Positions 1 to 27,755 of a DNA stretch of 32,836 nucleotides are shown piece by piece. A model generated the notes under the pieces. The model ran no database searches, was not told the DNA's origin, and worked only from the letters and a program-made list of their open reading frames with translations. A program made the translations under genes and the position numbers. The DNA comes from Giardia intestinalis. Its lineage: Eukaryota. The number at the start of each line of letters is the position of its first letter. Positions within the stretch are counted from its first letter, which is position 1. The stretch is from assembly GCA_000002435.2 (NCBI GenBank), contig AACB03000007.1. The stretch is one strand, 5' to 3'.

Positions 1-2677
1 TTTGTACATTTTCCTCCCTGCACTGTAGTACACACTTGCTTGCCAGGCTGTCATCTGTCTGATAGCAACCGCCATCTTTGAGGAGAGTATTTTCACATTG
101 AGTGCATGCTCCATTACTCACCGTAGTGCAAAATCGTGTTCGCGTATTGGCCGCACAGTTGCCATCCAGTGGTGCCTGTTGAGTGTTCTTGCACTTTGAG
201 CAGTATGCAGTTCCTCCTATCTGAGCCCCCACTCTGCGCATCCATCGTTTGTAGAACTCACGCTGCACTGGTTCATGCACGTGCCCCATTGGCAGGAGTA
301 TCAGCATCTGTATACTGAAGCATCCTCCAGCAGGACAAGCCGTACACTTATCAGCGCCCTCACCCTTGCACTCTACGCACGCATCGTTGCACTTCTTGCA
401 CTTTCTGTCAGTGTCATTTCCGTAGTAGCCCTTGAGGGTCGTGCAGTCAGATACGCATTGACTGGTTGGGGTGAGGTAGTACTCAGACAGACACTTTGTA
501 CAGACCTCCTTATCGGCACCTTCACTGGTGCACTCCAAACAGTGCTCTGTGTTACAGTTACTGATTGGTTGGCATTCAGTCGATTCAGTATTAGGTTGGA
601 GTCCTTCGTTGCACTCGCACACTTGGCTATCCTGTCCGGTGGCCTTGGGGGTAGAGTTAGCAGGGCAACTAGCAACGCACGACTTTCTGTTGAGACCAAA
701 GATGGTCTTCGTATCAGTCGTACACGTCTTACAAACCACTCCGTTGGCGCCTTTCTCACAAGTGGTGCAGTCAGTTGTTCCAGCCGACACACATGTATTG
801 CACTCCTTTGCTTCTTCATCAACGTAGTGGGTTGCCGGACAACCAGCTGTGTCAACGCACGTGCCGGTTGTGGACTCGCCATCCTTCTTCAGGTACTTCT
901 TGGTCCCAGACGTTTTACACAGGCTGCACTTCTGTTGCTCCTTGGCCACGCACACAGCGCAATTATCATCTGCACACGCGGTGCACTTCTTCTCGGTAGC
1001 GTCGATGAAGAAGCCCTCCTCATTAGTACACGCCTCTGCGCTAACACAGCTGGGTGCATCGCCAGCTTTAAAGTAGAATCCATCAACACACTCCCCACAT
1101 ATATTGTCCACCACACAGCTCTTGCAATCACCCACAGAGCATGTCACACACCCACTACCACCCTTGTTGGGCTTCTTACCACTGTCACAGGCAGTACACA
1201 CAGCGACAGTCATACCAGCTGTTGTTAGAGCTGTCGGGGCTGTGCACTGAGAGCAGCCATCTACTCCCACGTATGCCTTAGCGGTACCTTGAGGATCTAC
1301 TAGTGTGCCTAGGGGGTTACTACATGCCAACACGGACTGCTGAGCATTGGATGCCCCTGGTACCAGGAAGTACTTATTATTCTCATTAACAGCGGTACAG
1401 ACACCGTTGGCTGCTGTCTTGCACATGGACTTACCCGGCTGAGTTGACACACTATAACAACCACCCATGTATAGGAAGTATCCCGTAGTACATGATGTAC
1501 ATATATGATTATCACAAGTATTCCCATTCTTTTGACCACTATCAACACACTTCCCATCAATTGGTATCTTATTGGTCTCTCCACAGTAGGAACAGTAGTG
1601 CTTTGTGGTGCCCTGATCATCAATTATCATGGCATCACAAGCACCAGAGGTACCCCCGCAGGCAGTATCATCCTCACAGGTTTTGGTACATGTAACAGGA
1701 CTGGTACCGCTCTGCTTGTAGTTCGCTTTACAGCCAGTACACTTGAAAGTACTGGCCTCCTTTGTACACTCAGCACACCCATCGATGCCCCCATTGTTTG
1801 TGTCACTACATGAGATGCACTTTCCTGCCGGTTTTGCAACCTCAACGAGGAAGAACCCTGCCTTACAGGTCAGGCACTTATCCTCAGCAGTTTCAGCTGA
1901 GCATGTGGCACAGTTGGCGTGACAGGGGGTGCATGTTACTGAACCAACTCCGGTACTTTTGTATCCCTCCAGGCATTCTGTGCAAGTTGGATTAGCACTC
2001 GCTGTCTTCATGCAAGCCTTACAGCCAGCAATGCCTTTGTTCTTTTGTTCTGGATCCGACGCTGCGGGATCACTGCACAAACGACACACGTTGTCTTCGG
2101 TCATAAAGAGACCGTTATCAGCTCCTTGACACCCGGCGTAGTTCTTCGCCACGCAGGTCGAGGTTCCATCAAGGGTCGTCCTGGGGATCTTACTGTTATC
2201 ACAAGCTGTGCACTTCGGCTTCTTGGTAGTCGAATCAACTTCACACTGGGTACATGCTTGATCTATCGTGTTGCAGTCCCTACAAGTTCCCGACTCTGGG
2301 TCAGCATAAGTGTTTCCAGTGCACTCATTACTATTCACGCATGCATTATCCTTCAGGAACGTATTTCCCTTACAAGAGGTACACTGGGTCGCCGACGTCT
2401 CACAGGTCAGGCAAGAGTCGTTGCACTTCTCACATGCGCCGTTACTATTTAGAAAGTATCCCTCTGTGCATGCAGTACACGTGGCAGCCCCCTTGTTACT
2501 GTCTGGCGCTGTGCATGTGGCGCAGCTCTCCACTCCCTTATATCCATTCGCTCCTGTGGCATCATGACAGAGTATGCACTCCCCACCAGGGGTCACCTTG
2601 TCTGCCCCATTCTGGAATATGTACTGACTATCTGTATTACAAGCAGTGCACAGTCCTCCCTCAGCCTTTGTGCATAT
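1..2677 (-). CDS. Unit 1: partial long-type VSP. Its 3' end runs off the window start and its 5' end is at 2677. It is the paralog of the 1022-aa unit at 10272..13340.
   Basis: Nucleotides 1..2677 align almost base-for-base with 10654..13337. The start is the same ICTKAEGGLCTAC (ATA TGC ACA AAG GCT GAG.. on the minus strand, plus 2669-2677). Relative to both other long copies there is a 3-nt deletion near 88-95 and a 1-nt deletion near 52 (gtcatctg versus gtctatctg). This gives a frameshift in the last ~50 nt of the window. The second GGCY module (KDGGCYQTDRQPG) is encoded near 60-100. Confidence 0.7.
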   Translation of the reverse strand, partial: MCTKAEGGLCTACNTDSQYIFQNGADKVTPGGECILCHDATGANGYKGVESCATCTAPDSNKGAATCTACTEGYFLNSNGACEKCNDSCLTCETSATQCTSCKGNTFLKDNACVNSNECTGNTYADPESGTCRDCNTIDQACTQCEVDSTTKKPKCTACDNSKIPRTTLDGTSTCVAKNYAGCQGADNGLFMTEDNVCRLCSDPAASDPEQKNKGIAGCKACMKTASANPTCTECLEGYKSTGVGSVTCTPCHANCATCSAETAEDKCLTCKAGFFLVEVAKPAGKCISCSDTNNGGIDGCAECTKEASTFKCTGCKANYKQSGTSPVTCTKTCEDDTACGGTSGACDAMIIDDQGTTKHYCSYCGETNKIPIDGKCVDSGQKNGNTCDNHICTSCTTGYFLYMGGCYSVSTQPGKSMCKTAANGVCTAVNENNKYFLVPGASNAQQSVLACSNPLGTLVDPQGTAKAYVGVDGCSQCTAPTALTTAGMTVAVCTACDSGKKPNKGGSGCVTCSVGDCKSCVVDNICGECVDGFYFKAGDAPSCVSAEACTNEEGFFIDATEKKCTACADDNCAVCVAKEQQKCSLCKTSGTKKYLKKDGESTTGTCVDTAGCPATHYVDEEAKECNTCVSAGTTDCTTCEKGANGVVCKTCTTDTKTIFGLNRKSCVASCPANSTPKATGQDSQVCECNEGLQPNTESTECQPISNCNTEHCLECTSEGADKEVCTKCLSEYYLTPTSQCVSDCTTLKGYYGNDTDRKCKKCNDACVECKGEGADKCTACPAGGCFSIQMLILLPMGHVHEPVQREFYKRWMRRVGAQIGGTAYCSKCKNTQQAPLDGNCAANTRTRFCTTVSNGACTQCENTLLKDGGCYQTDDSLASKCVLQCREENVQ

Positions 2678-2737
2678 CTCACTCCACTATCATACTATCA
2701 CCCTCTATCACACATTGTACAGCATTCACTACCCAAG
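2678..2737 (-). promoter_or_regulatory. Inter-VSP spacer (60 nt) with a poly(A) signal AGTGAAT at 2724..2730 and a CACTATCA-type tract.
   Basis: The minus strand reads TGA CTTGGGT AGTGAAT GCTGTACAATGTGTGATAGAGGGTGATAGTATGATAGTGGAGTGAG then ATA TGC. AGTGAAT matches the Giardia AGTRAAY poly(A) signal 7 nt after the stop. Confidence 0.7.
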
Positions 2738-4585
2738 TCACGCCTTCCCCCTGCACACGAACCACCAGCAGAGGAAGCCCACGAGGCCCCCCACGACAGC
2801 GATGACAGCGACGGAGATCCCTGCTATGGCACCAGTACTGAGGCCGCTTCTGTTGCCCCCGCTGGGCTTGGTGGACACGCACGCCTCACCCTCCAGCCTG
2901 TAGTCGTCCCCACACTGGCCGCACTTGTTCTCCTCGCTGCACCTGACGCACCCGTCGATATTGCAGGCGATGCACTTCGTTCCGTCTGTGTTCGGCCTCT
3001 GGTCTTTACTGGTACAGGCCTCGCACTTATCGCCTGCTCCACAGTGCGAGCATCCGTCAACGGTACATGCGAAGCACCCGCTCCCAGCCAGGTTGGGCTT
3101 GTTGTTGTTGGTACACGCTGTACACACAGCAGCAGTCATACCAGTCTCAGATGGAGCTGCTGGGGCCGTACATGCCGAACAGCCATCTACCCCCACATAT
3201 GCCTTAGAGGTATCACCAGTGCCTACTAGTGTGCCAAGGGAGTTGCTACATGCTAATACAGACTGATTCTGATTGGTTGCCCCAGGGACTATGAAGTACC
3301 TATTGTTGGCATTAACAGCAGTACAGACACCGTTGGCTGCTGTCTTGCACATATGTTGTCCAGGTACTGTATCAACCTTGTAACAACCTCCCATATACAA
3401 GAAGTAGTTGTTAGTGCATTGTGTACATACACCTTGATCACATTGATTATTTGCTTTAGCACTATTACACTTCCCATCTATAGGATACGTATTAGCTTCT
3501 CCACAGTATGAGCAATAATGATGCTCTACACCCTTATCATCAATCACTATTGCATCGCAGGCACCAGAAGTTCCTCCACAGGCAGTATCATCTTCACAGA
3601 TCTTGGTGCATGTGACAGAGCCAGTACTGCCCTCCTTGCGATAGTTAGGCTTACAGTCAGTGCACTTGAAAGCACCGTTGTTAGAGCAGACACTGCAGCC
3701 TTCGCGACCCTTATCGTCTACGCTATCGCATGGGACGCACTTCTTCCCCTGTTGATCTGTAGTAGTTACTAAGAAGTATCCAGTCTTGCAGGTTTCACAC
3801 TTATTTGGATCACCAGCAACAGAGCATGTGGCACAGTTATCACCACACTTGTCTGTACATGTACTAGTACCACTATCAAAGAAGTATCCATCGAGACAGG
3901 CTGAGCAGGTTGGATTGTCACTTCCTGTTTTCGTACATGTCTTGCAGTTGGCCTTTCCTTCGTTACCAAGAGTTGAATCTGTCACATCACTACAAAGAGC
4001 ACACGTTTTGTCCTCCTTCATAAATAAGGCCTCGTCAGCGCCCTCGCATCCTTCAAGCGTCTTCGCCACGCAGGTCGATGTCCCGTCGAGGGCCGTCCTG
4101 GGGGTCTTATTGGTCCCGCAGTTAGTGCACTTTGGCTTCCCCGTGGCCTTGTCGAAGGAGCATGCCGTGCACTCTGCGTGTATCGTACTACATGCCTTGC
4201 ATGTTCCCGACTCCGGGTCAGCATACTTATCATTACCACAGCTATCAGTACATTGATTCCCATTGAGGTACTTCCCCTCTGGACACGATGTGCACTGGGT
4301 CGCCGATGTCTCACAGGTGGCACAGTTCCCCTCGCATGGCTTACAAAGCTTGTTGTTTAGGAAGTACCCCTCTTGACAGGTATTACACGTGGCAGGTCCT
4401 GCATTCCCTGGTGCCGTACACTTGAGACAGTTGGCCACTCCCGTATATCCATTCGCTCCCTTGATATCAGAGCACAGGATGCACTCACTACCAGGGGTCA
4501 CCTTGTCTGCCCTGTTCTGGAATATGTACTTGTTATCTGTCTTACAAGCAGTGCACAGTCCATTACTGGCCTTTGTACATATCAC
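2738..4585 (-). CDS. Unit 2: VSP paralog (615 codons, type a). The frame is intact, but there is no ATG and no signal peptide.
   Basis: ORF 2738..4585 ends in ..[17 protein letters not shown] then TGA. It contains a YMGGCY motif and many CXXC pairs. Its first codon is GTG (plus 4583-4585 is cac). An in-frame TAG lies 3 codons upstream. The N-terminus is ICTKASNGLCTACK. Confidence 0.85.
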   Translation of the reverse strand: MICTKASNGLCTACKTDNKYIFQNRADKVTPGSECILCSDIKGANGYTGVANCLKCTAPGNAGPATCNTCQEGYFLNNKLCKPCEGNCATCETSATQCTSCPEGKYLNGNQCTDSCGNDKYADPESGTCKACSTIHAECTACSFDKATGKPKCTNCGTNKTPRTALDGTSTCVAKTLEGCEGADEALFMKEDKTCALCSDVTDSTLGNEGKANCKTCTKTGSDNPTCSACLDGYFFDSGTSTCTDKCGDNCATCSVAGDPNKCETCKTGYFLVTTTDQQGKKCVPCDSVDDKGREGCSVCSNNGAFKCTDCKPNYRKEGSTGSVTCTKICEDDTACGGTSGACDAIVIDDKGVEHHYCSYCGEANTYPIDGKCNSAKANNQCDQGVCTQCTNNYFLYMGGCYKVDTVPGQHMCKTAANGVCTAVNANNRYFIVPGATNQNQSVLACSNSLGTLVGTGDTSKAYVGVDGCSACTAPAAPSETGMTAAVCTACTNNNKPNLAGSGCFACTVDGCSHCGAGDKCEACTSKDQRPNTDGTKCIACNIDGCVRCSEENKCGQCGDDYRLEGEACVSTKPSGGNRSGLSTGAIAGISVAVIAVVGGLVGFLCWWFVCRGKA

Positions 4586-4642
4586 ACTCCACTATCATAC
4601 TATCACCCTCTATCACACATTGTACAGCATTCACTACCCAAG
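4586..4642 (-). promoter_or_regulatory. Inter-VSP spacer (57 nt) with a poly(A) signal at 4629..4635.
   Basis: It has the same architecture. The plus strand is atcacactccactatcatactatcaccctctatcacacattgtacagcattcactacccaag. Confidence 0.7.
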
Positions 4643-6508
4643 TCACGCCTTCCCTCTACATATGAACCACCAGCAGAGGAAGCCCACGAGGCCCCCCACG
4701 ACAGCGACCACAGCGACGGAGATCCCCGCGATGGCCCCCGTGGAGAGCCCGCTCCTGTTGGTGCCAGAGGACACACACATGCCATCCCTCGGGACATAGC
4801 CCTCCTCGCACTCCCCGCAGACGCCCTCTGCGCTGCACCGCATGCACCTCTCTATGTCACAGACAATGCACTGGGTGCCGTCCAGGCTGGGTCTCTGGTC
4901 TTTATTGGTACATGCCTCACACTTGTTGTCTGCGCTGCAGTGAGAGCAGCCCTGGGCCGGACACACATAGCAGGTGCTTCCAGCCATGTTGGGCTTCTTA
5001 TTGTCCTCAGCACACACCTCGCACATCCCGTCGATGGCGCAGCTCTTGCACCCGCCGACCGCACACAGGGTGCACCCGCTGCCATCCTTGTTGGGCTTCT
5101 TCGTCTTGTCGCACGCACTACAGACCGCCGCGGCCATCGCATTGGCGGCTGGCGCCTGCGGGGCCGCGCACGCCGTGCAGTCTAGCACGCCGACGTACGC
5201 CTTGTCGCCCGCGGTCGCTCCCACAGGGTTGCCACAGGCAAGCACGGACTGCTGAGCAGCAGAGTCCCCGGGAATCTTGAAGTAGCGCCCGACCGGTGTG
5301 GTGCAGAACCCACTTGGAGCCGCAGAGCACATGAGGTTGCCAGGAGCCTTCGACACATCATAGCAACCACCCATATAGAGGAAGTAGTTGTTGGTGCACC
5401 GCGTACATACGCCATCGGCGCAGGTATTACCTGCAAGTGCATTGGTGCACTTCCCATTAATAGGGCCATAGCCGGCGCCAACACACTTTGAACAGTAAGA
5501 GAGCATGCTGCCGTCGTTGCCGACCACGATGGCGTCGCAGGCCCCTGCTGTCCCTCCACATGCAGTCTCATCTTCACAGGTCTTTGTACATGTGAGGTCG
5601 CTAGGTTCTCCGCTGGGTCTGTAGTTGGGCTTACATTCAGTGCATTTGAGGGACCCCACGCCGCCTGTGCACTCGGCACAGCCTGGAATCCCACTTGTCT
5701 CGTCATCACAGAGAACGCATGTCTTAGGCGGGCCATCCTTAAGGAAGTACCCCGGCATGCATCTTGTACATGTGTTGATTTGACCCGCTGTTCCGCACTC
5801 TGCGCAGTTTCCTGTGCAGGCCTCGCAGGCGTTTCCGTTGACTTTATACCCGTCGACACAAGCCTCGCAGGTGCCTTTTGCGGTGCACAGCTTGCAGTTC
5901 TGGACTCCGCCCTTACCATTGTCGCCGCACTGCACGCACTTCGAGGCGTCGTAGAAGTGCGTCTTGCCCACTTTGCACTCGGCCTCATCAACACAGGTCG
6001 TTGTCCCATCCAGCTCGTCTCTGACCGTCTTACTACCGCAGTCGGTGCACTTCGGCTTTCCCGTGGCGTCGTCGTATGCACACGCGGTGCATCCTTGTAT
6101 CTCACTGCAGGCCTTACAGGTCCAGGTCTTCTTGTCCGCATAGTTACCATTGTCACATCCACCAGCATCTACACAAGTGTTACCATCCTTCAGGTACTTC
6201 CCCTCAACGCAGGCGGTACACTGAGTCGGAGTATCAGCTGAGCAAGCAGAGCAGCCGTCTCCGCACTTCACACATGCACTGTCCTTCGTAACGAACCCTG
6301 CTTGACACTCTGTACACGTGGCCGGTCCGCTAGTGCCCGTGTGGGAGCATTCTGAGCATCCAGCGACTCCCATGACCCCGTTTCTATCTGTCGTATCAGA
6401 GCACAGTATGCACTCACTACCCTTCTCTGGTGTTGCAGCCGGGTTCTTGAACAGGCCGTTATCTGCCTTACAAGCAGTGCACAGTCCTCCCTCAGCCTTT
6501 GTGCATAT
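4643..6508 (-). CDS. Unit 3: VSP paralog (type b, about 621 codons measured from ICTKAEGG). It has an in-frame ATG at 6371-6373 (MGVAGCSECSH) 45 codons into the unit.
   Basis: ORF 4643..6373 ends in ..WWFICRGKA then stop. The frame stays open upstream to 6508 (ICTKAEGGLCTACKADNGLFKNPAATPEKGSECILCSDTTDRNGV-MGVAG..). It contains a GGCY motif. The C-terminal module is ..CDKTKKPNKDGSGCTLCAVGGCKSC... Confidence 0.85.
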   Translation of the reverse strand: MCTKAEGGLCTACKADNGLFKNPAATPEKGSECILCSDTTDRNGVMGVAGCSECSHTGTSGPATCTECQAGFVTKDSACVKCGDGCSACSADTPTQCTACVEGKYLKDGNTCVDAGGCDNGNYADKKTWTCKACSEIQGCTACAYDDATGKPKCTDCGSKTVRDELDGTTTCVDEAECKVGKTHFYDASKCVQCGDNGKGGVQNCKLCTAKGTCEACVDGYKVNGNACEACTGNCAECGTAGQINTCTRCMPGYFLKDGPPKTCVLCDDETSGIPGCAECTGGVGSLKCTECKPNYRPSGEPSDLTCTKTCEDETACGGTAGACDAIVVGNDGSMLSYCSKCVGAGYGPINGKCTNALAGNTCADGVCTRCTNNYFLYMGGCYDVSKAPGNLMCSAAPSGFCTTPVGRYFKIPGDSAAQQSVLACGNPVGATAGDKAYVGVLDCTACAAPQAPAANAMAAAVCSACDKTKKPNKDGSGCTLCAVGGCKSCAIDGMCEVCAEDNKKPNMAGSTCYVCPAQGCSHCSADNKCEACTNKDQRPSLDGTQCIVCDIERCMRCSAEGVCGECEEGYVPRDGMCVSSGTNRSGLSTGAIAGISVAVVAVVGGLVGFLCWWFICRGKA

Positions 6509-6568
6509 CTCACTCCACTATCATACTATCACCCTCTATCACACATTGTACAGCATTCACTACCCAAG
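6509..6568 (-). promoter_or_regulatory. Inter-VSP spacer (60 nt) with a poly(A) signal at 6555..6561.
   Basis: Same conserved spacer. Confidence 0.7.
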
Positions 6569-8320
6569 TCACGCCTTCCCCCTGCACACGAACCACCAGC
6601 AGAGGAAGCCCACGAGGCCCCCCACGACAGCGATGACAGCGACGGAGATCCCCGCGATGGCCCCCGTGGAGAGCCCGCCCCTGTTGGTACTCATAGACAC
6701 ACAGGAGGTCCCACTGCTGTCTAGACTGTACCCATCAACACACTCCCCACACACATCATCCACCACACAGCTCTTGCAGTCACTCACAGAGCACAGCACA
6801 CACCCACTACCATCCCTGTTGGGCTTCTTACTACTGTCACAAGAGGTACACACAGCGACAGTCATACCAGCCCCAGTCAGAGCTGCTGGGGCTGTACACT
6901 GCGAACAGCCATCCACCCCCACATATGCCTTAGAGGTATCACCAGTGCCTACTAGTGTGCCAAGGGAGTTGCTACATGCCAATACAGACTGATTCTGATT
7001 GGTTGCCCCAGGGACTATGAAGTACCTATTGTTGGCATTAACAGCGGTACAGACACCGTTGGCTGCTGTCTTGCACATATGTTGTCCAGGTACTGTATCA
7101 ACCTTGTAACAACCTCCCATATACAAGAAGTAGTTGTTAGTGCATTGTGTACATACACCTTGATCACATTGATTATTTGCTTTAGCACTATTACACTTCC
7201 CATCTATAGGATACGTATTAGCTTCTCCACAGTATGAGCAATAATGATGCTCTACACCCTTATCATCAATCACTATTGCATCGCAGGCACCAGAAGTTCC
7301 TCCACAGGCAGTATCATCTTCACAGATCTTGGTGCATGTGACAGAGCCAGTACTGCCCTCCTTGCGATAGTTAGGCTTACAGTCAGTGCACTTGAAAGCA
7401 CCGTTGTTAGAGCAGACACTGCAGCCTTCGCGACCCTTATCGTCTACGCTATCGCATGGGACGCACTTCTTCCCCTGTTGATCTGTAGTAGTTACTAAGA
7501 AGTATCCAGTCTTGCAGGTTTCACACTTATTTGGATCACCAGCAACAGAGCATGTGGCACAGTTATCACCACACTTGTCTGTACATGTACTAGTACCACT
7601 ATCAAAGAAGTATCCATCGAGACAGGCTGAGCAGGTTGGATTGTCACTTCCTGTTTTCGTACATGTCTTGCAGTTGGCCTTTCCTTCGTTACCAAGAGTT
7701 GAATCTGTCACATCACTACAAAGAGCACACGTTTTGTCCTCCTTCATAAATAAGGCCTCGTCAGCGCCCTCGCATCCTTCAAGCGTCTTCGCCACGCAGG
7801 TCGATGTCCCGTCGAGGGCCGTCCTGGGGGTCTTATTGGTCCCGCAGTTAGTGCACTTCGGCTTCCCCGTGGCCTTGTCGAAGGAGCATGCCGTGCACTC
7901 TGCGTGTATCGTACTACATGCCTTGCATGTTCCCGACTCCGGGTCAGCATAAGTGTTTCCATCGCATCCAGTATCTTGTACACATTGATTACTCTTCAGG
8001 TACTTCCCCTCTGGGCACGATGTACAATGATTCTGACCACTTCCATCGCAGGTCAGACAAGCTTCATTACATTTGACACATGTCTGAGAGTTCTTGTAGT
8101 ATCCATCTTGGCACTCTGTACACGTGGCAGGTCCTGGACTACTGTCTGACTTGGTACACTGTGCGCAGTTAGCCACCCCTGTATATCCATCTGCCCCATT
8201 GACATCATGACAGAGGATGCACTCACTACCAGGCTTCTGAGGTGTAACTGGGTTCTTGAACAGGCCGTTAGCTGTCTTACAAGCAGTGCACACTCCATCA
8301 CTGGCTGCTGTGCATATCAC
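6569..8320 (-). CDS. Unit 4: VSP paralog (583 codons, type c). It is intact and has no ATG.
   Basis: The ORF ends CRGKA then stop. Its start is GTG (8318-8320 cac) preceded by an in-frame TAG. The N-terminus is ICTAASDGVCTACKTANGLFKNPVTPQKPGSECILCHDVNG. The central ~430 aa are identical to unit 2. The C-terminal module is CDSSKKPNRDGSGCVLCSVSDCKSCVVDDVCGECVDGYSLDSSGTSCVSMSTNRGG. Confidence 0.85.
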   Translation of the reverse strand: MICTAASDGVCTACKTANGLFKNPVTPQKPGSECILCHDVNGADGYTGVANCAQCTKSDSSPGPATCTECQDGYYKNSQTCVKCNEACLTCDGSGQNHCTSCPEGKYLKSNQCVQDTGCDGNTYADPESGTCKACSTIHAECTACSFDKATGKPKCTNCGTNKTPRTALDGTSTCVAKTLEGCEGADEALFMKEDKTCALCSDVTDSTLGNEGKANCKTCTKTGSDNPTCSACLDGYFFDSGTSTCTDKCGDNCATCSVAGDPNKCETCKTGYFLVTTTDQQGKKCVPCDSVDDKGREGCSVCSNNGAFKCTDCKPNYRKEGSTGSVTCTKICEDDTACGGTSGACDAIVIDDKGVEHHYCSYCGEANTYPIDGKCNSAKANNQCDQGVCTQCTNNYFLYMGGCYKVDTVPGQHMCKTAANGVCTAVNANNRYFIVPGATNQNQSVLACSNSLGTLVGTGDTSKAYVGVDGCSQCTAPAALTGAGMTVAVCTSCDSSKKPNRDGSGCVLCSVSDCKSCVVDDVCGECVDGYSLDSSGTSCVSMSTNRGGLSTGAIAGISVAVIAVVGGLVGFLCWWFVCRGKA

Positions 8321-8387
8321 ACTCCACTATCACACATTATCACACTATCACCTTCTATCACACATTGTACAGCATTCACTACCTAAG
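8321..8387 (-). promoter_or_regulatory. Inter-VSP spacer (67 nt) with a poly(A) signal at 8374..8380. It carries an extra cacacattat insertion.
   Basis: The minus strand reads TGA CTTAGGT AGTGAAT. This is an exact match to the extended VSP 3' motif remembered as ACTYAGRTAGTRAAY. The CACTATCA tract is longer here. Confidence 0.7.
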
Positions 8388-10211: not shown

Positions 10212-10271
10212 CTCACTCCACTATCATACTATCACCCTCTATCACACATTGTACAGCATTCACTACCTAAG
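10212..10271 (-). promoter_or_regulatory. Inter-VSP spacer (60 nt) with a poly(A) signal at 10258..10264.
   Basis: TGA CTTAGGT AGTGAAT variant. Same tract. Confidence 0.7.
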
Positions 10272-13340: not shown

Positions 13341-13397
13341 ACTCCACTATCATACTATCACCCTCTATCACACATTGTACAGCATTCACTACCCAAG
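13341..13397 (-). promoter_or_regulatory. Inter-VSP spacer (57 nt) with a poly(A) signal at 13384..13390.
   Basis: Same conserved spacer. Confidence 0.7.
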
Positions 13398-15146: not shown

Positions 15147-15206
15147 CTCACTCCACTATCATACTATCACCCTCTATCACACATTGTACAGCATTCACTA
15201 CCCAAG
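15147..15206 (-). promoter_or_regulatory. Inter-VSP spacer (60 nt) with a poly(A) signal at 15193..15199.
   Basis: Same conserved spacer. Confidence 0.7.
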
Positions 15207-17072: not shown

Positions 17073-17132
17073 CTCACTCCACTATCATACTATCACCCTC
17101 TATCACACATTGTACAGCATTCACTACCCAAG
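17073..17132 (-). promoter_or_regulatory. Inter-VSP spacer (60 nt) with a poly(A) signal at 17119..17125.
   Basis: Same conserved spacer. Confidence 0.7.
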
Positions 17133-18941
17133 TCACGCCTTCCCCCTGCACACGAACCACCAGCAGAGGAAGCCCACGAGGCCCCCCACGACAGCGATGA
17201 CAGCGACGGAGATCCCTGCTATGGCACCAGTACTGAGGCCGCTCTTGTTGGTGCCAGAGGACGCACAGGAGGTCCCACTGCTGTCAGGGCTGTATCCATC
17301 GTTGCACACACAGACAGAGTCGGTGTCAGTGGAGTTGCTGGGGCAGCTATCCACGCATGACTTCCTTCCAGGGCTCACCTTCTTACCACTACTGCATGCC
17401 TCGCACATGTTGTCCATATCACAGTGCGAGCATCCACTAACGGTACATGGGAAGCACCCGCTCCCAGCCAGGTTGGGCTTGTTGTTGTTGGTACACGCTG
17501 TGCACGTGGCGGCAGTCATGCCACCATCAGATGGAGCTGCTGGGGCCGTACATGCCGAACAGCCATCTACCCCCACATATGCCTTAGAGGTATCACCAGT
17601 GCCTACTAGTGTGCCTAGGGGGTTCTCGCAGGCCAGGACAGACTGATCAGTATTGGATGCCCCCGGGACCAGGAAGTACCGGCCGTTCTCGCTGGGGGCG
17701 GTGCACCTCCCTCCCTCGGCAGTCTTGCACATGTGGCTGCCAGGAGCCTTCGACACATCATAGCAGCCGCCCATGTACAGGAAGAACCCGGCAGCACACC
17801 GGGTGCAGACGCCATTGGCACAGGTGTTGTCACCCTTAGTTCCTGTGCAGATCCCATCGATGGGGAACGTGGCGGGGTCTCCGCACAGCGAGCAGTACTG
17901 GGAGAACGCCCCGGCGCTGTCAACGACGACCGCCCCGCAGGCCCCAGACGTCCCCCCGCAGGCCGTGGGGTCCTCGCAGGCCTTTGTGCACTTCACCGGA
18001 TTGGTTCCCTCCTTGCGATAGTTGGACTTGCAATCGGTGCATGTAGGGGTTAGGCCGCTGTTACATTGGGAGCACCCCTCGATGCCATTGTCGGCTTTAC
18101 TGTCGCAGGCGAAGCACTTACCAGCAGAGCCGGGTTGTTTCATGAAGAATCCAGGCTTGCATTTAGTGCACTGATCATTGCCAGCAGCAGAGCATGTAGC
18201 ACAGTTGGCACCGCAAGCTGTGCATGTATCAGAACCAAAGTATCCGTCGAGGCAAGCTGAGCAGGTCGGCTTGGCTCCGTTCTTCTTACACGTTTTACAA
18301 TTAGCAATCCCCTTGTCGTTTGCTTCTGTTCCTGTTGTTGTATCACTGCATAATATGCACTTGGTGCTATCATCACTCAGAAAGTGGGATCCGTCGACGT
18401 TATCTGTTGCGCACCCAGCATCATCGACGCAAGTGGTTGTCCCATCCAGCTCTGTCTTCACCTTCTTATTGTTACAGGCGGTGCACTGGGGCTTGCTGAC
18501 AGTCGTGTTGTACTCACACGCGGTGCAATCTGCTATACCAGACTCCTTGCATGTCATTGTCATAGGGTCAGCATAAGTGTTTCCAGTGCATCCATCACTA
18601 TTCACGCATGCATTATCCTTCAGGAACGTATTTCCCTTACAAGAGGTACACTGGGTCGCCGATGTCTCACAGGTCAGACAAGTACCATCACATTTGGTAC
18701 ATGCCTGAGAGTCCATGTAGTACCCATCTTGACACTCGGTGCACGTGGCCGCTCCTGTATTGCCACCAGGTGCCGTGCACTTGAGACAGTTGGCCACTCC
18801 CTTGTTCTCATTCGCTCCTGTGGCATCATGACAGAGGATGCACTCCCCACCAGGGGTCACCTTGTCTGCCCCATTCTGGAATATGTACTTGTTATCTGCC
18901 TTACAAGCAGTGCACAGTCCTCCCTCAGCCTTTGTGCATAT
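17133..18941 (-). CDS. Unit 9: VSP paralog (about 602 codons). It combines a type d N-terminus and centre with a unique C-terminal module.
   Basis: ORF 17133..18860 is extended in frame to 18941 (ICTKAEGGLCTACKADNKYIFQNGADKVTPGGE..). The C-terminal module [73 protein letters not shown] is not seen in any other unit. It ends CRGKA then stop. Confidence 0.85.
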   Translation of the reverse strand: MCTKAEGGLCTACKADNKYIFQNGADKVTPGGECILCHDATGANENKGVANCLKCTAPGGNTGAATCTECQDGYYMDSQACTKCDGTCLTCETSATQCTSCKGNTFLKDNACVNSDGCTGNTYADPMTMTCKESGIADCTACEYNTTVSKPQCTACNNKKVKTELDGTTTCVDDAGCATDNVDGSHFLSDDSTKCILCSDTTTGTEANDKGIANCKTCKKNGAKPTCSACLDGYFGSDTCTACGANCATCSAAGNDQCTKCKPGFFMKQPGSAGKCFACDSKADNGIEGCSQCNSGLTPTCTDCKSNYRKEGTNPVKCTKACEDPTACGGTSGACGAVVVDSAGAFSQYCSLCGDPATFPIDGICTGTKGDNTCANGVCTRCAAGFFLYMGGCYDVSKAPGSHMCKTAEGGRCTAPSENGRYFLVPGASNTDQSVLACENPLGTLVGTGDTSKAYVGVDGCSACTAPAAPSDGGMTAATCTACTNNNKPNLAGSGCFPCTVSGCSHCDMDNMCEACSSGKKVSPGRKSCVDSCPSNSTDTDSVCVCNDGYSPDSSGTSCASSGTNKSGLSTGAIAGISVAVIAVVGGLVGFLCWWFVCRGKA

Positions 18942-19001
18942 CTCACTCCACTATCATACTATCACCCTCTATCACACATTGTACAGCATTCACTACCCAA
19001 G
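18942..19001 (-). promoter_or_regulatory. Inter-VSP spacer (60 nt) with a poly(A) signal at 18988..18994.
   Basis: Same conserved spacer. Confidence 0.7.
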
Positions 19002-20744
19002 TCACGCCTTCCCCCTGCACACGAACCACCAGCAGAGGAAGCCCACGAGGCCCCCCACGACGACGACCACAGCGACGGAGATCCCCGCGATGGCCCCCGT
19101 GGAGAGCCCGCTCCTGTTGGTACTCATAGACACACAGGAGGTCCCACTGCTGTCTAGACTGTACCCATCAACACACTCCCCACACACATCATCCACCACA
19201 CAGCTCTTGCAATCACCCACAGAGCACAGCACACACCCGGTGCCATCCTTGTTGGGCTTCTTATCACTGTCACAGGAGGTGCATGTAGCGGCAGTCATAC
19301 CACCATCAGACAGAGCTGTTGGGGCCGTGCATGCTGAGCAGTTGAGTACCCCAACGTATGCCTTAGAGGTATCACCAGTGCCTACTAGTGTGCCAAGGGA
19401 GTTGCTACATGCTAATACAGACTGATTCTGATTGGTTGCCCCAGGGACTACGAAGTACCTATTGTTGGCATTAACAGCGGTACAGACACCGTTGGCTGCT
19501 GTCTTGCACATATGTTGTCCAGGTACTGTATCAACCTTGTAACAACCTCCCATATACAAGAAGTAGTTGTTAGTGCATTGTGTACATACACCTTGATCAC
19601 ATTGATTATTTGCTTTAGCACTATTACACTTCCCATCTATAGGATACGTATTAGCTTCTCCACAGTATGAGCAATAATGATGCTCTACACCCTTATCATC
19701 AATCACTATTGCATCGCAGGCACCAGAAGTTCCTCCACAGGCAGTATCATCTTCACAGATCTTGGTGCATGTGACAGAGCCAGTACTGCCCTCCTTGCGA
19801 TAGTTAGGCTTACAGTCAGTGCACTTGAAAGCACCGTTGTTAGAGCAGACACTGCAGCCTTCGCGACCCTTATCGTCTACGCTATCGCATGGGACGCACT
19901 TCTTCCCCTGTTGATCTGTAGTAGTTACTAAGAAGTATCCAGTCTTGCAGGTTTCACACTTATTTGGATCACCAGCAACAGAGCATGTGGCACAGTTATC
20001 ACCACACTTGTCTGTACATGTACTAGTACCACTATCAAAGAAGTATCCATCGAGACAGGCTGAGCAGGTTGGATTGTCACTTCCTGTTTTCGTACATGTC
20101 TTGCAGTTGGCCTTTCCTTCGTTACCAAGAGTTGAATCTGTCACATCACTACAAAGAGCACACGTTTTGTCCTCCTTCATAAATAAGGCCTCGTCAGCGC
20201 CCTCGCATCCTTCAAGCGTCTTCGCCACGCAGGTCGATGTCCCGTCGAGGGCCGTCCTGGGGGTCTTATTGGTCCCGCAGTTAGTGCACTTCGGCTTCCC
20301 CGTGGCCTTGTCGAAGGAGCATGCCGTGCACTCTGCGTGTATCGTACTACATGCCTTGCATGTTCCCGACTCCGGGTCAGCATACTTATCATTACCACAG
20401 CTATCAGTACATTGATTCCCATTGAGGTACTTCCCCTCTGGACACGATGTGCACTGGGTCGCCGATGTCTCACAGGTGGCACAGTTCCCCTCGCATGGCT
20501 TACAAAGCTTGTTGTTTAGGAAGTACCCCTCTTGACAGGTATTACACGTGGCAGGTCCTGCATTCCCTGGTGCCGTACACTTGAGACAGTTGGCCACTCC
20601 CGTATATCCATTCGCTCCCTTGATATCAGAGCACAAGATGCACTCCCCACCAGGAGTCACCTTGTCTGCCCTGTTCTGGAATATGTACTGACTATCTGTA
20701 TTACAAGCAGTGCACACTCCACTACTGGCCTTTGTGCATATCAC
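19002..20744 (-). CDS. Unit 10: VSP paralog (580 codons). It combines a type a N-terminus with a type c-like C-terminus.
   Basis: The start is GTG (20742-20744) preceded by TAG. The N-terminus is ICTKASSGVCTACNTDSQYIFQNRADKVTPGGECILCSDIKG. The C-terminal module is CDSDKKPNKDGTGCVLCSVGDCKSCVVDDVCGECVDGYSLDSSGTSCVSMSTNRSG. It ends CRGKA then stop. Confidence 0.85.
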   Translation of the reverse strand: MICTKASSGVCTACNTDSQYIFQNRADKVTPGGECILCSDIKGANGYTGVANCLKCTAPGNAGPATCNTCQEGYFLNNKLCKPCEGNCATCETSATQCTSCPEGKYLNGNQCTDSCGNDKYADPESGTCKACSTIHAECTACSFDKATGKPKCTNCGTNKTPRTALDGTSTCVAKTLEGCEGADEALFMKEDKTCALCSDVTDSTLGNEGKANCKTCTKTGSDNPTCSACLDGYFFDSGTSTCTDKCGDNCATCSVAGDPNKCETCKTGYFLVTTTDQQGKKCVPCDSVDDKGREGCSVCSNNGAFKCTDCKPNYRKEGSTGSVTCTKICEDDTACGGTSGACDAIVIDDKGVEHHYCSYCGEANTYPIDGKCNSAKANNQCDQGVCTQCTNNYFLYMGGCYKVDTVPGQHMCKTAANGVCTAVNANNRYFVVPGATNQNQSVLACSNSLGTLVGTGDTSKAYVGVLNCSACTAPTALSDGGMTAATCTSCDSDKKPNKDGTGCVLCSVGDCKSCVVDDVCGECVDGYSLDSSGTSCVSMSTNRSGLSTGAIAGISVAVVVVVGGLVGFLCWWFVCRGKA

Positions 20745-20822
20745 ACTCCACTATCACACTATCATCACACTATCACCCTCTATCACACACTATCACCCAT
20801 TGTACAGCATTCACTACCCAAG
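20745..20822 (-). promoter_or_regulatory. Inter-VSP spacer (78 nt, the longest) with a poly(A) signal at 20809..20815.
   Basis: The plus strand is actccactatcacactatcatcacactatcaccctctatcacacactatcacccattgtacagcattcact. It carries extra CACTATCA-like repeat units. Confidence 0.7.
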
Positions 20823-23800
20823 TCACGCCTTCCCCCTGCACACGAACCACCAGCAGAGGAAGCCCACGAGGCCCCCCACGACAGCGATGACAGCCACGGA
20901 GATCCCTGCTATGGCACCAGTACTGAGGCCGCTCTTGTTGACGCTTCCGCCGGTGTTGTCGCCAGTGCCGTCGCCCATCACGAAGCACATGAACGCACCG
21001 GTGGATGACACCGTGCACTGCCTGCACCCAGCGAGCCCCTCAGAGCACGGATTACACTTTGTCCCAGCACTCTGCGGTTTGTAATATCCAGTGCTGCATG
21101 TAGCACAGGCGTTAGCGTCGTTAGCAGCCGTGCATGTCTCGCAGCTAAGATGGCACCTTTTATTGGAACAATCGCCATTATCAGCCGTTAGACCACTGGC
21201 ACATTTTGTACATTTTCCTCCCTGCACTGTAGTACACACTTGCTTGCCAGGCTGTCTATCTGTCTGATAGCAACCGCCATCTTTGAGGAAGTAGTTATTT
21301 TCACATTGAGTGCATGCTCCATTACTCACCGTAGTGCAAAATCGTGTTCGCGTATTGGCCGCACAGTTGCCATCCAGTGGTGCCTGTTGAGTGTTCTTGC
21401 ACTTTGAGCAGTATGCAGTTCCTCCTATCTGAGCCCCACACTCTGCGCATCCATCGTTTGTAGAACTCACGCTGCACTGGTTCATGCACGTGCCCCCATT
21501 GGCAGGAGTATCAGCATCTGTATACTGAAGCATCCTCCCAGCAGGACAAGCCGTACACTTATCAGCGCCCTCACCCTTGCACTCTACGCACGCATCGTTG
21601 CACTTCTTGCACTTTCTGTCAGTGTCATTTCCGTAGTAGCCCTTGAGGGTCGTGCAGTCAGATACGCATTGACTGGTTGGGGTGAGGTAGTACTCAGACA
21701 GACACTTTGTACAGACCTCCTTATCGGCACCTTCACTGGTGCACTCCAAACAGTGCTCTGTGTTACAGTTACTGATTGGTTGGCATTCAGTCGATTCAGT
21801 ATTAGGTTGGAGTCCTTCGTTGCACTCGCACACTTGGCTATCCTGTCCGGTGGCCTTGGGGGTAGAGTTAGCAGGGCAACTAGCAACGCACGACTTTCTG
21901 TTGAGACCAAAGATGGTCTTCGTATCAGTCGTACACGTCTTACAAACCACTCCGTTGGCGCCTTTCTCACAAGTGGTGCAGTCAGTTGTTCCAGCCGACA
22001 CACATGTATTGCACTCCTTTGCTTCTTCATCAACGTAGTGGGTTGCCGGACAACCAGCTGTGTCAACGCACGTGCCGGTTGTGGACTCGCCATCCTTCTT
22101 CAGGTACTTCTTGGTCCCAGACGTTTTACACAGGCTGCACTTCTGTTGCTCCTTGGCCACGCACACAGCGCAATTATCATCTGCACACGCGGTGCACTTC
22201 TTCTCGGTAGCGTCGATGAAGAAGCCCTCCTCATTAGTACACGCCTCTGCGCTAACACAGCTGGGTGCATCGCCAGCTTTAAAGTAGAATCCATCAACAC
22301 ACTCCCCACATATATTGTCCACCACACAGCTCTTGCAATCACCCACAGAGCATGTCACACACCCACTACCACCCTTGTTGGGCTTCTTACCACTGTCACA
22401 GGCAGTACACACAGCGGCAGTCATACCAGCTGTTGTTAGAGCTGCGGGGCTGTACACTGGGAGCAGCCATGTACCCCCACATATGCCTTAGCGGTACCTT
22501 GAGGATCTACTAGTGTGCCTAGGGGGTTACTACATGCCAACACGGACTGCTGAGCATTGGATGCCCCTGGTACCAGGAAGTACTTATTATTCTCATTAAC
22601 AGCGGTACAGACACCGTTGGCTGCTGTCTTGCACATATGTTGTCCAGGTGGACTCTGAGTGCTATAACAACCACCCATATATAAGAAATATCCTGTAGTA
22701 CAAGACTCACAGACATGGTTGTTACAAGTATTACTTTGAGCCTCACTAGCACAGAGACCATCTATAGGATACTTACTGCTATCCCCACAGTATGAACAGT
22801 AGTGCTTTGTGGTGCCCTGATCATCTATTATCATGGCATCACAAGCACCAGAGGTACCCCCACAGGCAGTATCATCTTCACATACCTTTGTACATGTAAC
22901 AGGACTGGTACCACTCTGCTTGCGATAGTTCACCTTACAGTCAGTACACTTGAAAGTACTGGCCTCCATTGTGCATTGGGAGCACCCCTCGATGCCCCCA
23001 TTGTTTGTGTCATCGCAGGCGAAGCATTCTCCAGGAGTGCTACTGACCTTCAGGAAGAACCCGGTCTTGCAGGTTTGGCATTTGGTCTTGTCAGCTTTTT
23101 CAGAACATGTGGCACAGTTAGCACCACAGGCCTCACACGTGGCGGCAGGGCCATTTCCTTCTTTGATATACCCTTCGAGGCATTCTATGCATTCTGGTTT
23201 CTGACTTTGCTGCTTAGTACATGTCTTGCAGCCGGCAATGCCTTTGTTCTTTGGTTCTGAATCCGACGCTGCGGGATCACTGCACAAACGACACACGTTG
23301 TCTTCGGTCATAAAGAGACCGTTATCAGCTCCTTGACACCCGGCGTAGTCTTTTGTCACACAGGTCGAGGTCCCATCAAGGGTCGTCCTGGGGGTCTTAT
23401 TGGTCCCGCAGTTGGTGCACCTTGGCTTTCCCGTGGCATCATTATATTCACATGCGGTGCACCCAGCTATGTCGGGATCACATGCCTTGCAGGTCCAGGT
23501 CTTCTTGTCTGCGTACTGGGTTGCCTCGCATCCACTAGCATCTACACATTGATTATTCTTCAGGTACTTCCCCTCAACGCAGGCGGTACACTGAGTCGGA
23601 GTATCAGCTGAGCAAGCAGAGCAGCCGTCTCCGCACTTCACACATGCACTGTCCTTCGTAACGAACCCTGCTTGACACTCTGTACACGTGGCCGGTCCGC
23701 TAGTGCCCGTGTGGGAGCATTCTGAGCATCCAGCGACTCCCATGACCCCGTTTCTATCTATAGTATCGGAGCACAAGATGCACTCACTACCAGGCTTCTG

Positions 23801-23878
23801 AGGTGTAACTGGGTTCTTGAACAGGCCGTTAGCTGTCTTACAAGCAGTGCACAGTCCTCCCTCAGCCTTTGTGCATAT
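20823..23878 (-). pseudogene. Unit 11: long-type VSP with a 1-nt deletion frameshift near 22447. It is split into two ORFs and has a type b N-terminus.
   Basis: ORF 22436..23776 (..HGCSQCTAPQL then stop) and ORF 20823..22457 (MYSPAALTTAGMTAAVCTAC.. to CRGKA) together are colinear with unit 6. Plus 22441-22452 reads gctgcggggctg, where unit 6 has gctgctggggctg at about 11891. The N-terminal part is open to 23878 and is of the MGVAGCSECSH type. Confidence 0.75.
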
Positions 23879-23938
23879 CTCACTCCACTATCATACTATC
23901 ACCCTCTATCACACATTGTACAGCATTCACTACCCAAG
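23879..23938 (-). promoter_or_regulatory. Inter-VSP spacer (60 nt) with a poly(A) signal at 23925..23931.
   Basis: Same conserved spacer. Confidence 0.7.
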
Positions 23939-25779: not shown

Positions 25780-25839
25780 CTCACTCCACTATCATACTAT
25801 CACCCTCTATCACACATTGTACAGCATTCACTACCCAAG
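25780..25839 (-). promoter_or_regulatory. Inter-VSP spacer (60 nt) with a poly(A) signal at 25826..25832.
   Basis: Same conserved spacer. Confidence 0.7.
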
Positions 25840-27687: not shown

Positions 27688-27755
27688 ACTCCACTATCAC
27701 ACTATCATCACACTATCACCCTCTATCACACATTGTACAGCATTCACTACCCAAG
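27688..27755 (-). promoter_or_regulatory. Inter-VSP spacer (68 nt) with a poly(A) signal at 27742..27748.
   Basis: It has an expanded tract (cactatcacactatcatcacactatcaccctctatcacacattg). Confidence 0.7.

Follow-up and report, generated by a model that had tools for sequence, protein, structure and literature searches.

What kind of locus is the 32,836-bp stretch of Giardia intestinalis DNA analyzed here (hereafter, the window), and how did the order of its repeated units come about? A sequence-only reading of the window had proposed a higher-order repeat of about 10.6 kb, in which one long unit is followed by short units of four types (a-d) that are kept in every period and are permuted as whole units by unequal crossing-over or segmental conversion. 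In our analysis the units are pseudo-VSP cassettes, each without start codon, signal peptide and initiator. VSPs are the antigens that Giardia varies in order to persist in the gut, and pseudo-VSP arrays make up a sizeable and poorly assembled portion of its genome. We consider that the window is very probably a linear pseudo-VSP array of G. intestinalis assemblage A (WB or a very close relative), which has been reshaped by recombination and may serve as a putative reservoir.

Identity and anatomy of the units

The whole window is a minus-strand, head-to-tail array of 16 VSP units, 3 of them long (about 3.1 kb) and 13 short (about 1.8-1.9 kb), with spacers of 51-114 nt between them (Table 1). 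The units are delimited by 15 CRGKA-stop sites on the minus strand. The spacing of these sites gives successive unit lengths of 1905, 1926, 1819, 1884, 3126, 1809 and 1926 bp for U01 to U07, and of 1869, 1821, 3116, 1901, 1916, 1821 and 1908 bp for U08 to U14. Both window ends fall inside units.

Table 1. Units of the array and a representative spacer
Feature	Class	Coordinates	Strand	Remarks
U00	Long pseudo-VSP cassette	1..2737	-	3' end cut by window start; open from 2686 to 2, 895 codons
U01	Short, type a	2738..4642	-	ORF 2738..4591, 617 aa, no start codon; Pfam VSP E=3.5e-38; XP_001705784.1 (P0121, WB) 99.5% identical, from internal Met
U02	Short, type b	4643..6568	-	ORF 4643..6517, 624 aa; 99.5% identical to U07
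U03	Short, type c	6569..8387	-	ORF 6569..8326, 585 aa; 98.5% identical to U06; spacer with 3 GTGATAG
U04	Short, type d	8388..10271	-	ORF 8388..10220, 610 aa; 1,300-bp exact tract with U08; 3' zone identical to that of U12
U05	Complete long cassette	10272..13397	-	ORF 10272..13346, 1024 aa, 45 CXXC; Pfam VSP E=1.1e-80
U06	Short, type c	13398..15206	-	1,421-bp exact tract with U03
U07	Short, type b	15207..17132	-	In register with U02, offset 10,564
U08	Short	17133..19001	-	Type d in 5' zone and core, own 3' zone; 93.7% identical to U04
U09	Chimera	19002..20822	-	5' zone and core type a, 3' zone c-like (89.9% identity to U03); 1,383-bp exact tract with U12, 0/329 differences in 5' zone; spacer with 4 GTGATAG
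U10	Third long unit, chimera	20823..23938	-	5' ~1.4 kb like VSP 'S7' or type b; 3' 1.56 kb exact to U05; frame shifted by 1-bp deletion near 22445; P0122 97.7% identical over 22445-23743
U11	Chimera	23939..25839	-	5' zone b-like (first ~350 bp only), middle unique, 3' zone d-like; frame shifted by 1-bp deletion near 24387
U12	Chimera	25840..27755	-	Type-a 5' zone and core joined to exact d-type 3' zone
U13	Short, type c	27756..29576	-	Five single-base deletions in first ~120 nt (29458-29576)
U14	Chimera	29577..31484	-	5' d-like (98.8% to U04), unique core, 3' a-like (99.6% to U01)
U15	Short, a-type core	31485..32836	-	5' end cut by window end
Spacer	Representative inter-cassette spacer	4592..4643	-	VSP extended polyadenylation motif overlapping upstream TGA (ACTTGGGTAGTGAATGC), then 2-4 GTGATAG copies

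The Pfam family PF03302 (VSP) is matched by the units with E values from 1e-38 to 1e-80. Their Cys content is 11.6-13.1%; the number of CXXC motifs is 24-32 in short cassettes that are complete and open, and 45 in the long cassette. All 15 unit ends read ...GFLCWWF[VI]CRGKA-TGA, which comprises the transmembrane helix, the CRGKA tail and the stop. The closest database proteins are those of G. lamblia ATCC 50803 (WB); no 2007 WB protein matches any unit of the window at 100% identity from end to end. A structured RNA or other non-coding element was ruled out by the lack of Rfam hits at the gathering threshold, and an inverted-repeat or palindromic organization by zero minus-strand self matches in the whole-window BLAST. 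A solitary VSP locus from an ENA metagenome was unrelated and is not an array.

Each unit is a VSP gene minus roughly its first 100 codons, and with them the start codon with its initiator, the signal peptide and the N-terminal module. The CXXC-rich ectodomain is kept as an open frame, followed by the transmembrane helix and the CRGKA tail and then by the stop codon with the VSP polyadenylation motif. It was found that no unit has an in-frame ATG near its 5' end, and that the PyAATGTT initiator occurs nowhere in the window (0 compared with 5 expected). The frames of intact units open 51-72 nt past the upstream stop and begin WSEICT..., with no Met, and alignments of complete VSPs with the cassettes begin only at about aa 103-106 of the VSP. 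Because initiator, start codon and signal peptide are missing and the frames have no Met, we classify the units as pseudo-VSPs rather than VSPs. With the units identified as VSP pseudogene cassettes, the finding falls in a class already published (PMC2996952, PMC7000408, PMC7641422); start-less VSP arrays are known for Giardia, and the window is no new kind of element.

Spacers equivalent to the one in Table 1 occur at every unit boundary; they measure 51-72 nt in the twelve units that are complete and intact, and 114 nt at the damaged U13. The extended polyadenylation motif ACTTAGRTAGTRAAYRY lies beside the stop at 14 of the 15 unit ends (with at most 1 mismatch; 0 expected), and the sole end without it lies in a stretch with 1-bp deletions. 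GTGATAG occurs 36 times in comparison with 5.6 expected, and 35 of these copies are inside spacers, where they put stops in the cassette frame. The ATG within the spacer hits a stop after 5 codons. The tandem repeats that TRF reports in the window are merely these short GTGATAG repeats.

Mosaic structure of the units

Whole-window BLAST missed some pairs (e.g. U02/U07), and unit relations were taken from unit-by-unit and multiple alignments. From the resulting three-zone segment map, we found that the units are built from combinations of 5', core and 3' segments, and that at least 5 of the 16 units are chimeras (U09, U10, U11, U12 and U14). In types a and c, the core of about 0.8-0.9 kb is base-for-base identical while the flanks are only 67-77% identical; there are 0/798 differences in the core and 108/326 in the contrasting zone (Fisher p=3e-65). 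Across the array, exact tracts of 0.8-1.56 kb adjoin flanks of 55-77% identity, with Fisher p values from 1e-65 to 1e-89. The longest exact tract has 1,562 bp (U05/U10), and an exact core of 812-933 bp is common to seven units.

The boundaries of exchange lie mostly inside units and form two clusters, one at alignment columns ~450-650 and the other at ~1400-1550, where the conserved AKAYVGV..CTAP block lies. It is well supported that recombination or segmental conversion acted on the tandem array, and in this general form the mechanism of the sequence-only reading agrees with the exact tracts beside diverged flanks. On the other hand, sub-unit recombination accounts for the pattern better than a permutation of whole units.

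We propose that the array may have grown by tandem duplication, in which a five-unit block of ~10.6 kb was perhaps copied once, and that it would later have been reshaped by homologous recombination between units, via gene conversion or unequal crossing-over. The crossovers would have taken place in blocks common to all units, namely the spacer/5' boundary, columns 450-650, the AKAYVGV..CTAP block and the transmembrane/3' end, and each unit would thereby have drawn its 5', core and 3' segments from a small set of alternatives. What looks like a permutation of four types would then be a by-product of segment assortment. Gene-conversion tracts in assemblage AI are known to be enriched for VSPs (PMC12669663).

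Links to complete VSPs and retention of frames

The complete WB VSP P0029 (KAE8304683.1), which has a signal peptide, matches cassette b at the protein level in 315 of 316 aa (aa 433-748), whereas upstream (aa 106-432) the two proteins have only ~49% identity. In U02 the matching segment is the C-terminal 316 aa. Likewise at the protein level, a stretch of 125 aa in P0075 recurs exactly in U04 and U08. Mosaic tracts are therefore common to cassettes and expression-competent genes, a statement that applies to the protein level only.

Open frames were found in 13 of the 16 units, and the other 3 (U10, U11 and U13) carry 1-bp deletions. Between cassette types dN/dS is 0.18-0.35 with dS >1, and 125 of the 135 Cys columns are invariant. 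The low dN/dS might be a legacy of functional ancestors or have been brought in by conversion, instead of reflecting selection on the cassettes. From the unit anatomy and the data on G. muris, we infer that the cassettes are not themselves expressed. The retained frames, together with a hypothesis from the literature, suggest that they form a recombination reservoir which exchanges segments with complete VSP genes, and any donor role would probably act on evolutionary time scales.

The cassettes may alternatively be decaying relics of tandem duplication without a role, whose frames are open owing to recent duplication and homogenization. We regard this as possible, albeit doubtful. The lack of start codon, signal peptide and initiator would be expected of relics, as would the three units already disrupted. 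Nevertheless, types separated by dS >1 keep their frames, their invariant Cys columns and a dN/dS of 0.2-0.3 despite a common truncated 5' boundary, and relics would not readily account for the 315/316-aa segment common to a complete VSP.

The 10.6-kb periodicity

The long unit does recur as proposed: positions 1-2855 match 10654-13515 (U00 and U05) at 98.8% identity with an offset of 10,653 bp, and the 1,562-bp exact tract of U05 and U10 gives the second offset of 10,551 bp. As a long type, however, only U00 and U05 agree, since U10 resembles them only in its 3' 1.6 kb. The coordinates on which the periods had been based (2738, 13398, ~10211 and ~20744) coincide with boundaries of units or ORFs, and the order a-b-c-d of the first period is reproduced by overall identity. 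For the second period, proposed as c-b-d-a, the identities in Table 1 bear out U06 as c, U07 as b and U08 as d, but the supposed a (U09) is an a/c-like chimera. For the third, proposed as b-a-c-d-a, U13 is of type c; U11 is b-like over a short 5' stretch only, U12 carries a d-type 3' zone and U14 is mixed. Four short units lie between successive long units as claimed, but at least five follow the third long unit, some of them chimeric, and neither the number nor the composition of units per period is constant.

In a self dot-plot of 30-mers, the strongest diagonal is at 10.5-10.7 kb and contains 16% of the shared 30-mer pairs, but nearly as many pairs lie at offsets of 8.7, 5.6 and 6.8 kb, which argues against a period that is kept. 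The mean identity at a lag of 5 units is 0.69, the highest of lags 1-8, with p=0.04 when compared to random orders and p=0.32 when corrected for the choice of lag. No high-identity tract spanning two whole adjacent units was found in the whole-window BLAST, and register is kept at just 2 of 5 positions, those of the long unit and of type b. With five chimeras and an identical core in a and c, the four types are not discrete, and exchange boundaries inside units disagree with a permutation of whole units.

The 10.6-kb higher-order repeat is consequently weakly supported, its support being derived from the three long units and a single pair of type-b units in register. We consider it unlikely that the window is a true higher-order repeat of ~10.6 kb, with one long and four short units, in which four fixed types were permuted whole by unequal crossing-over or whole-unit conversion. 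The long units at unit positions 0, 5 and 10, type b in register in periods 1 and 2, the strongest 30-mer diagonal, the lag-5 identity before correction and the many high-identity tracts that terminate near unit boundaries speak for such a repeat. Against these stand the corrected p value, the extra short units of the third period, the lack of a tract across two adjacent whole units, the intra-unit chimeras and a third long unit that is of the long type in its 3' half only. When compared to satellite higher-order repeats (e.g. alpha-satellite), the window is similar in that a multi-unit period (5 units, ~10.6 kb) forms the strongest self-similarity diagonal. It differs in having 2 of 5 positions in register and only two complete periods, in an inter-period identity not consistently higher than the intra-period identity, and in units that are protein-coding pseudogenes and not satellite monomers.

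Silent archives, assembly and expression

Silent antigen-cassette archives for gene conversion are known in Trypanosoma brucei (VSG pseudogene arrays and mosaic VSGs), Borrelia (vls) and Anaplasma (msp2 pseudogenes). The window resembles them in its promoter-less, 5'-truncated and largely open tandem cassettes, in the conserved blocks that flank variable segments, and in its mosaic ties to expressed genes. We know of no dedicated expression site in Giardia, and none was seen in the window; antigen switching in Giardia is held to be epigenetic or post-transcriptional. It is quite unlikely, in our estimate, that the array is an active donor archive, from which assemblage A builds expressible VSPs by copying cassette segments via the conserved blocks on a time scale relevant to infection. 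If it were, the half-gene identity between cassette b and KAE8304683.1 would be a recent example, and a layer of DNA recombination would be added to a system regarded as purely epigenetic/RNAi-controlled.

Returning to the recombination-reshaped array, its unit order or some of its chimeras could be artefacts of long-read assembly, in which nearly identical cassettes of a single array or of several were wrongly joined or collapsed. Assembly is difficult across exact repeats of 0.8-1.5 kb, and the five 1-bp deletions in 29458-29576, with the single ones in U10 and U11, resemble residual long-read consensus errors. The WB PacBio assembly left 33 small contigs of <33 kbp, from reads unmapped to chromosomes (PMC7000408); the length of the window and its two mid-unit ends may tie it to those contigs. 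Also, neither P0121 nor P0147 of the 2007 WB proteins has an exact match among the window units. On the other hand, each unit has its own mix of diverged segments and its own spacer variant, and these give the assembly many anchoring differences. The mean read of ~8.7 kb, computed from Table 1 of PMC7000408, corresponds to 4-5 units, and mosaic VSP genes have been documented independently (PMC2996952). We therefore judge an assembly artefact very unlikely.

That the cassettes are expressed genes, starting at internal ATGs as in the 2007 annotation (e.g. XP_001705784.1) or at an ATG in the upstream polyadenylation motif, as in members of other arrays that are translated from a spacer ATG and begin MLYSDSDS..., is extremely improbable, since the spacer ATG here soon meets a stop, products from internal Mets would be without signal peptide, such genes were reclassified as pseudo-VSPs in the 2020 re-annotation, and the pseudo-VSPs of G. 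muris are essentially untranscribed (PMC7641422).

Comparison with published Giardia arrays

Linear vsp arrays of G. lamblia WB, with ~60-bp spacers and downstream members without initiator, were described and proposed to be recombination cassettes by Adam 2010 (PMC2996952), where the longest linear array had 10 units. Pseudo-VSP arrays of WB were also published by Xu 2020 (PMC7000408) and in the preprint of Rodriguez-Walker et al. 2022. Such arrays comprise 3 or more vsp units arranged head to tail on one strand, and their first member is often a complete VSP preceded by non-coding sequence. The window shares with the WB arrays the head-to-tail arrangement, the spacers of ~60 bp, the downstream members without initiator, proper start codon and signal peptide, the retained CRGKA tail and extended polyadenylation motif, and the closeness of the members, with 'long regions of 100% identity'. 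It differs from them in no way of kind. The details that we did not find in the WB-array papers (PMC2996952, PMC7000408 and the 2022 preprint) are 16 units in one stretch, a long unit at every fifth position, the explicit three-zone mosaic map and a spacer closed by stops, in contrast to the open MLYSDSDS... spacer in some other arrays.

The value of the window is descriptive: the construction of such an array can be followed base by base, in the crossover blocks that the units share, the three zones that assort and the exact tracts of >1 kb. The new detail is that one cassette (b) can be tied concretely to a complete VSP (KAE8304683.1). Our results support the published proposal that the arrays may be recombination reservoirs.

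In G. muris, telomere-adjacent arrays of 5-23 VSP pseudogenes without signal peptides are transcriptionally silent (Xu et al. 2020, PMC7641422), and there is phylogenetic evidence of recombination or gene conversion between these arrays and intact VSPs (PMC7641422). Like the window, they are tandem arrays of VSP pseudogenes without signal peptide. G. muris was nevertheless rejected as the source of the window, since its VSPs end in GCRGK (PMC7641422), whereas the units of the window end in CRGKA, the G. intestinalis form.

Layout of the array and anatomy of its units

The window is a Giardia pseudo-VSP linear array (VSP, variant-specific surface protein) of the class described by Adam et al. 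2010, in which one gene-sized, minus-strand unit is repeated over the whole length. Searching the reverse strand, we found 15 sites at which C-R-G-K-A is followed by a stop codon, spaced 1905, 1926, 1819, 1884, 3126, 1809, 1926, 1869, 1821, 3116, 1901, 1916, 1821 and 1908 bp apart. Both window ends fall within units, and with these two truncated members the array holds 16 units, numbered consecutively U00 to U15, of which three are long (U00, U05 and U10) and 13 short. The unit translations matched Pfam PF03302 ('Giardia variant-specific surface protein') with E=1e-38 to 1e-80 and contain 12-13% cysteine. CXXC motifs number 24-32 per short unit, where complete and open, and 45 for the long one; the C-termini consist of a hydrophobic helix and then CRGKA. 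Of the 15 unit ends, 14 (0 expected) have a stop codon overlapped by the extended polyadenylation motif ACTTAGRTAGTRAAYRY, published as VSP-specific (Rodriguez-Walker preprint). C exceeds G throughout the window, and G+C ranges from 47 to 61%. What sets the long units apart from the short ones is an additional CXXC-rich coding stretch of ~1.2 kb (alignment columns ~1800-2700), inserted after the AKAYVGV..CTAP block and before the transmembrane region. Opposite the cassettes, antisense ORFs of up to 363 aa were found at matching positions in several units, most likely a by-product of cassette codon composition.

Features of the array and their positions
Feature	Position (nt)	Strand	Description
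Long unit (example)	10272-13397		with extra ~1.2 kb
Antisense ORFs (examples)	30885-31976; 275-1228	plus	opposite cassettes
U10 deletion	~22445	minus	1 bp; CCCCAGCAGC to CCCCGCAGC
U11 deletion	~24387	minus	1 bp; GTACTCAAC to GTATCAAC
U13 5' end and spacer	29458-29576		five single-base deletions in ~120 bp compared with all other units
GTGATAG-bearing spacers (examples)	4592-4642; 8327-8387; 20751-20822		
Spacer ATG (example)	4623-4629	minus	AGTGAATGC; overlaps upstream unit's AGTGAAT polyadenylation hexamer
Type a			U01, U12; 97.5% overall identity
Type b			U02, U07; 99.5% overall identity
Type c			U03, U06, U13; 97-98.5% overall identity
Type d			U04, U08; 93.7% overall identity
U09 mosaic			5' zone and core type a (exact with U12 over 1,383 bp); 3' end c-like
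U10 mosaic			5' ~1.4 kb S7-like or b-like; 3' 1.56 kb of long unit
U11 mosaic			5' zone b-like; middle unique; 3' zone d-like
U12 mosaic			5' zone and core type a; 3' zone exact d-type (0/490 differences vs U04)
U14 mosaic			5' zone d-like; core unique; 3' zone a-like

Missing 5' ends and spacers

Every unit is a pseudo-VSP cassette, that is, an incomplete gene. The long open frame opens 51-72 nt past the stop codon of the preceding unit (114 nt at the damaged U13) and starts ...WSEICTKA... without a methionine, the first in-frame ATG lying 50-230 codons downstream. The VSP initiator PyAATGTT has no occurrence in the entire window against 5 expected, and the alignment of two complete VSPs with signal peptides (P0029, which is KAE8304683.1/XP_001705078.1, and P0045) to the units begins only at their own residue ~103-106. 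Therefore, the units are without the start codon, the signal peptide and the first ~100 codons.

The frame is open in 13 of the 16 units. The single-base deletions of U10 and U11, which may be real mutations or sequencing errors, are situated inside or beside the conserved AKAYVGV..CTAP block, and in U10 this block doubles as the junction between a 5' part like the previously cloned VSP S7 and a long-type 3' part. The deletions in U13 also abolish the local polyadenylation motif match, and the patch looks like unpolished long-read consensus rather than biology.

GTGATAG occurs 36 times (5.6 expected), with 2-4 copies per spacer at a ~10-nt period and a copy number that differs between units. 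In this array the T-containing version in the spacers gives rise to stop codons, whereas in other WB array members (P0149, P0012, P0018 and P0004) the homologous spacer, judged from the protein sequences, is apparently open and read as MLYSDSDS.... An ATG overlapping the upstream polyadenylation hexamer was also seen; its frame here is only five codons (MLYNV and stop), whereas the 2007 annotation took the equivalent ATG of other arrays for the start of a downstream 'VSP'.

Mosaic structure of the units

When the multiple alignment of the units was painted by local haplotype, each unit proved to be composed of segment alternatives in three or more zones. The four short-unit types a to d, taken as fixed kinds in the sequence-only reading, do not stand as such: the cores of types a and c show 0 differences in 798 positions (exact in seven units over 812-933 bp), but the 5' zones of the two types are only 67% identical and their 3' zones 77% (zone contrast Fisher p=3e-65), and U09-U12 and U14 are mixed. 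The ends of exact tracts concentrate at alignment columns ~450-650 and ~1400-1550, the latter cluster being the conserved AKAYVGV..C..CTAP block, and we therefore place exchange mainly within units, at conserved blocks. The reported whole-unit permutation is for the most part only apparent, a product of sub-unit assortment.

The proposed 10.6-kb periodicity

That reading had also described a higher-order repeat of about 10.6 kb, a long unit followed by the same short types reordered in each period. The observation is real but was partly over-read. Its offset of 10,653 bp is correct, with 98.8% identity between 1-2855 and 10654-13515, and so is that of 10,551 bp, at which U05 and U10 have a 1,562-bp exact tract in common. 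By overall identity the unit order roughly holds, being a-b-c-d in period 1 and c-b-d-(a-like) in period 2, though not as discrete types. The top diagonal of a 30-mer self dot-plot is at 10.5-10.7 kb (16% of shared 30-mer pairs), but offsets of 8.7, 5.6, 6.8 and 12.4 kb are little weaker. Mean identity peaks at a lag of 5 units (0.69), with p=0.04 against random unit orders and p=0.32 after correction for the choice of lag. Only the long unit and type b keep register, period 3 has at least five short units, and self-comparison of the window gave no high-identity tract across two whole neighbouring units. The higher-order repeat is therefore possible, perhaps through duplication of one ancestral five-unit block, but weak, and a genuine one with whole-unit permutation is doubtful.

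Coding constraint and probable exchange with complete genes

Comparisons of different cassette types give a dS above 1 and a dN/dS of 0.18-0.35, and all types have the same 5' truncation boundary and spacer; this implies that divergence accumulated under protein-level constraint. Invariant cysteine columns number 125 of 135. This constraint could date from functional genes whose sequence subsequently entered the array by copying, or else the cassettes themselves could be under selection for coding capacity.

Segments are shared with proteins that have a signal peptide, one of them a complete VSP. In its C-terminal part (aa 433-748), this complete VSP, P0029 (WB, 748 aa, signal peptide MFQLIPLFVASALMAAC), agrees with cassette b at 315 positions out of 316, but over aa 106-432 the identity is only ~49%; the conserved CEDETACGG block marks the switch. 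In P0075, also with a signal peptide, 125 residues are exactly those of cassette d. At the protein level, these matches directly support exchange between cassettes and functional genes. Growth of the array would have come from tandem duplication, perhaps also of a five-unit block, and homologous recombination at conserved blocks would continually reshuffle it; the array is presumably silent and may act as a reservoir on the evolutionary time scale. We hold the anatomical and recombinational account as a whole to be very probable, whereas active donation to expressed VSPs on the infection time scale seems quite unlikely.

Related proteins and published arrays

The nearest proteins in the databases belong to G. 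lamblia ATCC 50803 (WB), and none is identical to a unit over its full length; the source is accordingly taken to be WB or a near-identical assemblage A isolate, while G. muris is ruled out by the different tail of its VSPs. XP_001705784.1 (P0121; 427 aa, annotated in 2007 from an internal Met) is 99.5% identical to U01. VSP S7 (AAN52102.1, P0122; 539 aa) matches U10 at 97.7% in the 5' part of that unit (22445-23743) but has a short-type C-terminus, and U10 appears to be a recombinant of an S7-like short unit with a long unit. The 2007 WB long VSP XP_001705785.1 (P0147) corresponds to no single window unit: its first half resembles the unique middle of U14 (29742-31040; 84% identity), and its second half the 3' part of U10 (20826-22451; 99% identity, and 99.1% for the 3' half of the unit). 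The accessions next to it are XP_001705784 (a-type) and XP_001705783 (of a type missing from the window), so that either related cassettes lie beyond the window or there is a difference between the two assemblies. For WB, the PacBio study (PMC7000408) describes 33 residual contigs of <33 kbp, rich in gene families and built from reads unmapped to chromosomes. A substantial assembly artefact is, in our judgement, very unlikely.

In WB, over half of the vsp genes are members of linear arrays, with a mean spacer of 60 bp, downstream members without initiator, a variable first-ATG position and long stretches of 100% identity between related members; the units were proposed to be possibly recombination cassettes or leftover discarded vsp genes (Adam et al. 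2010, PMC2996952). Arrayed pVSPs carrying the extended polyadenylation motif (Rodriguez-Walker preprint), analogous arrays beside G. muris telomeres, untranscribed and bearing signs of gene conversion (PMC7641422), and enrichment of VSPs among assemblage AI gene-conversion tracts in a 2025 population study (PMC12669663) have also been reported. Features of this kind, their anatomy and the recombination reading are thus already published; for one array, the present analysis adds the 16-unit layout in which every fifth unit is long, a mosaic map in three zones, the blocks where breakpoints fall and the chimera of cassette b and a complete VSP. The tail of the G. muris VSPs is GCRGK (PMC7641422), whereas that of the window units is CRGKA.
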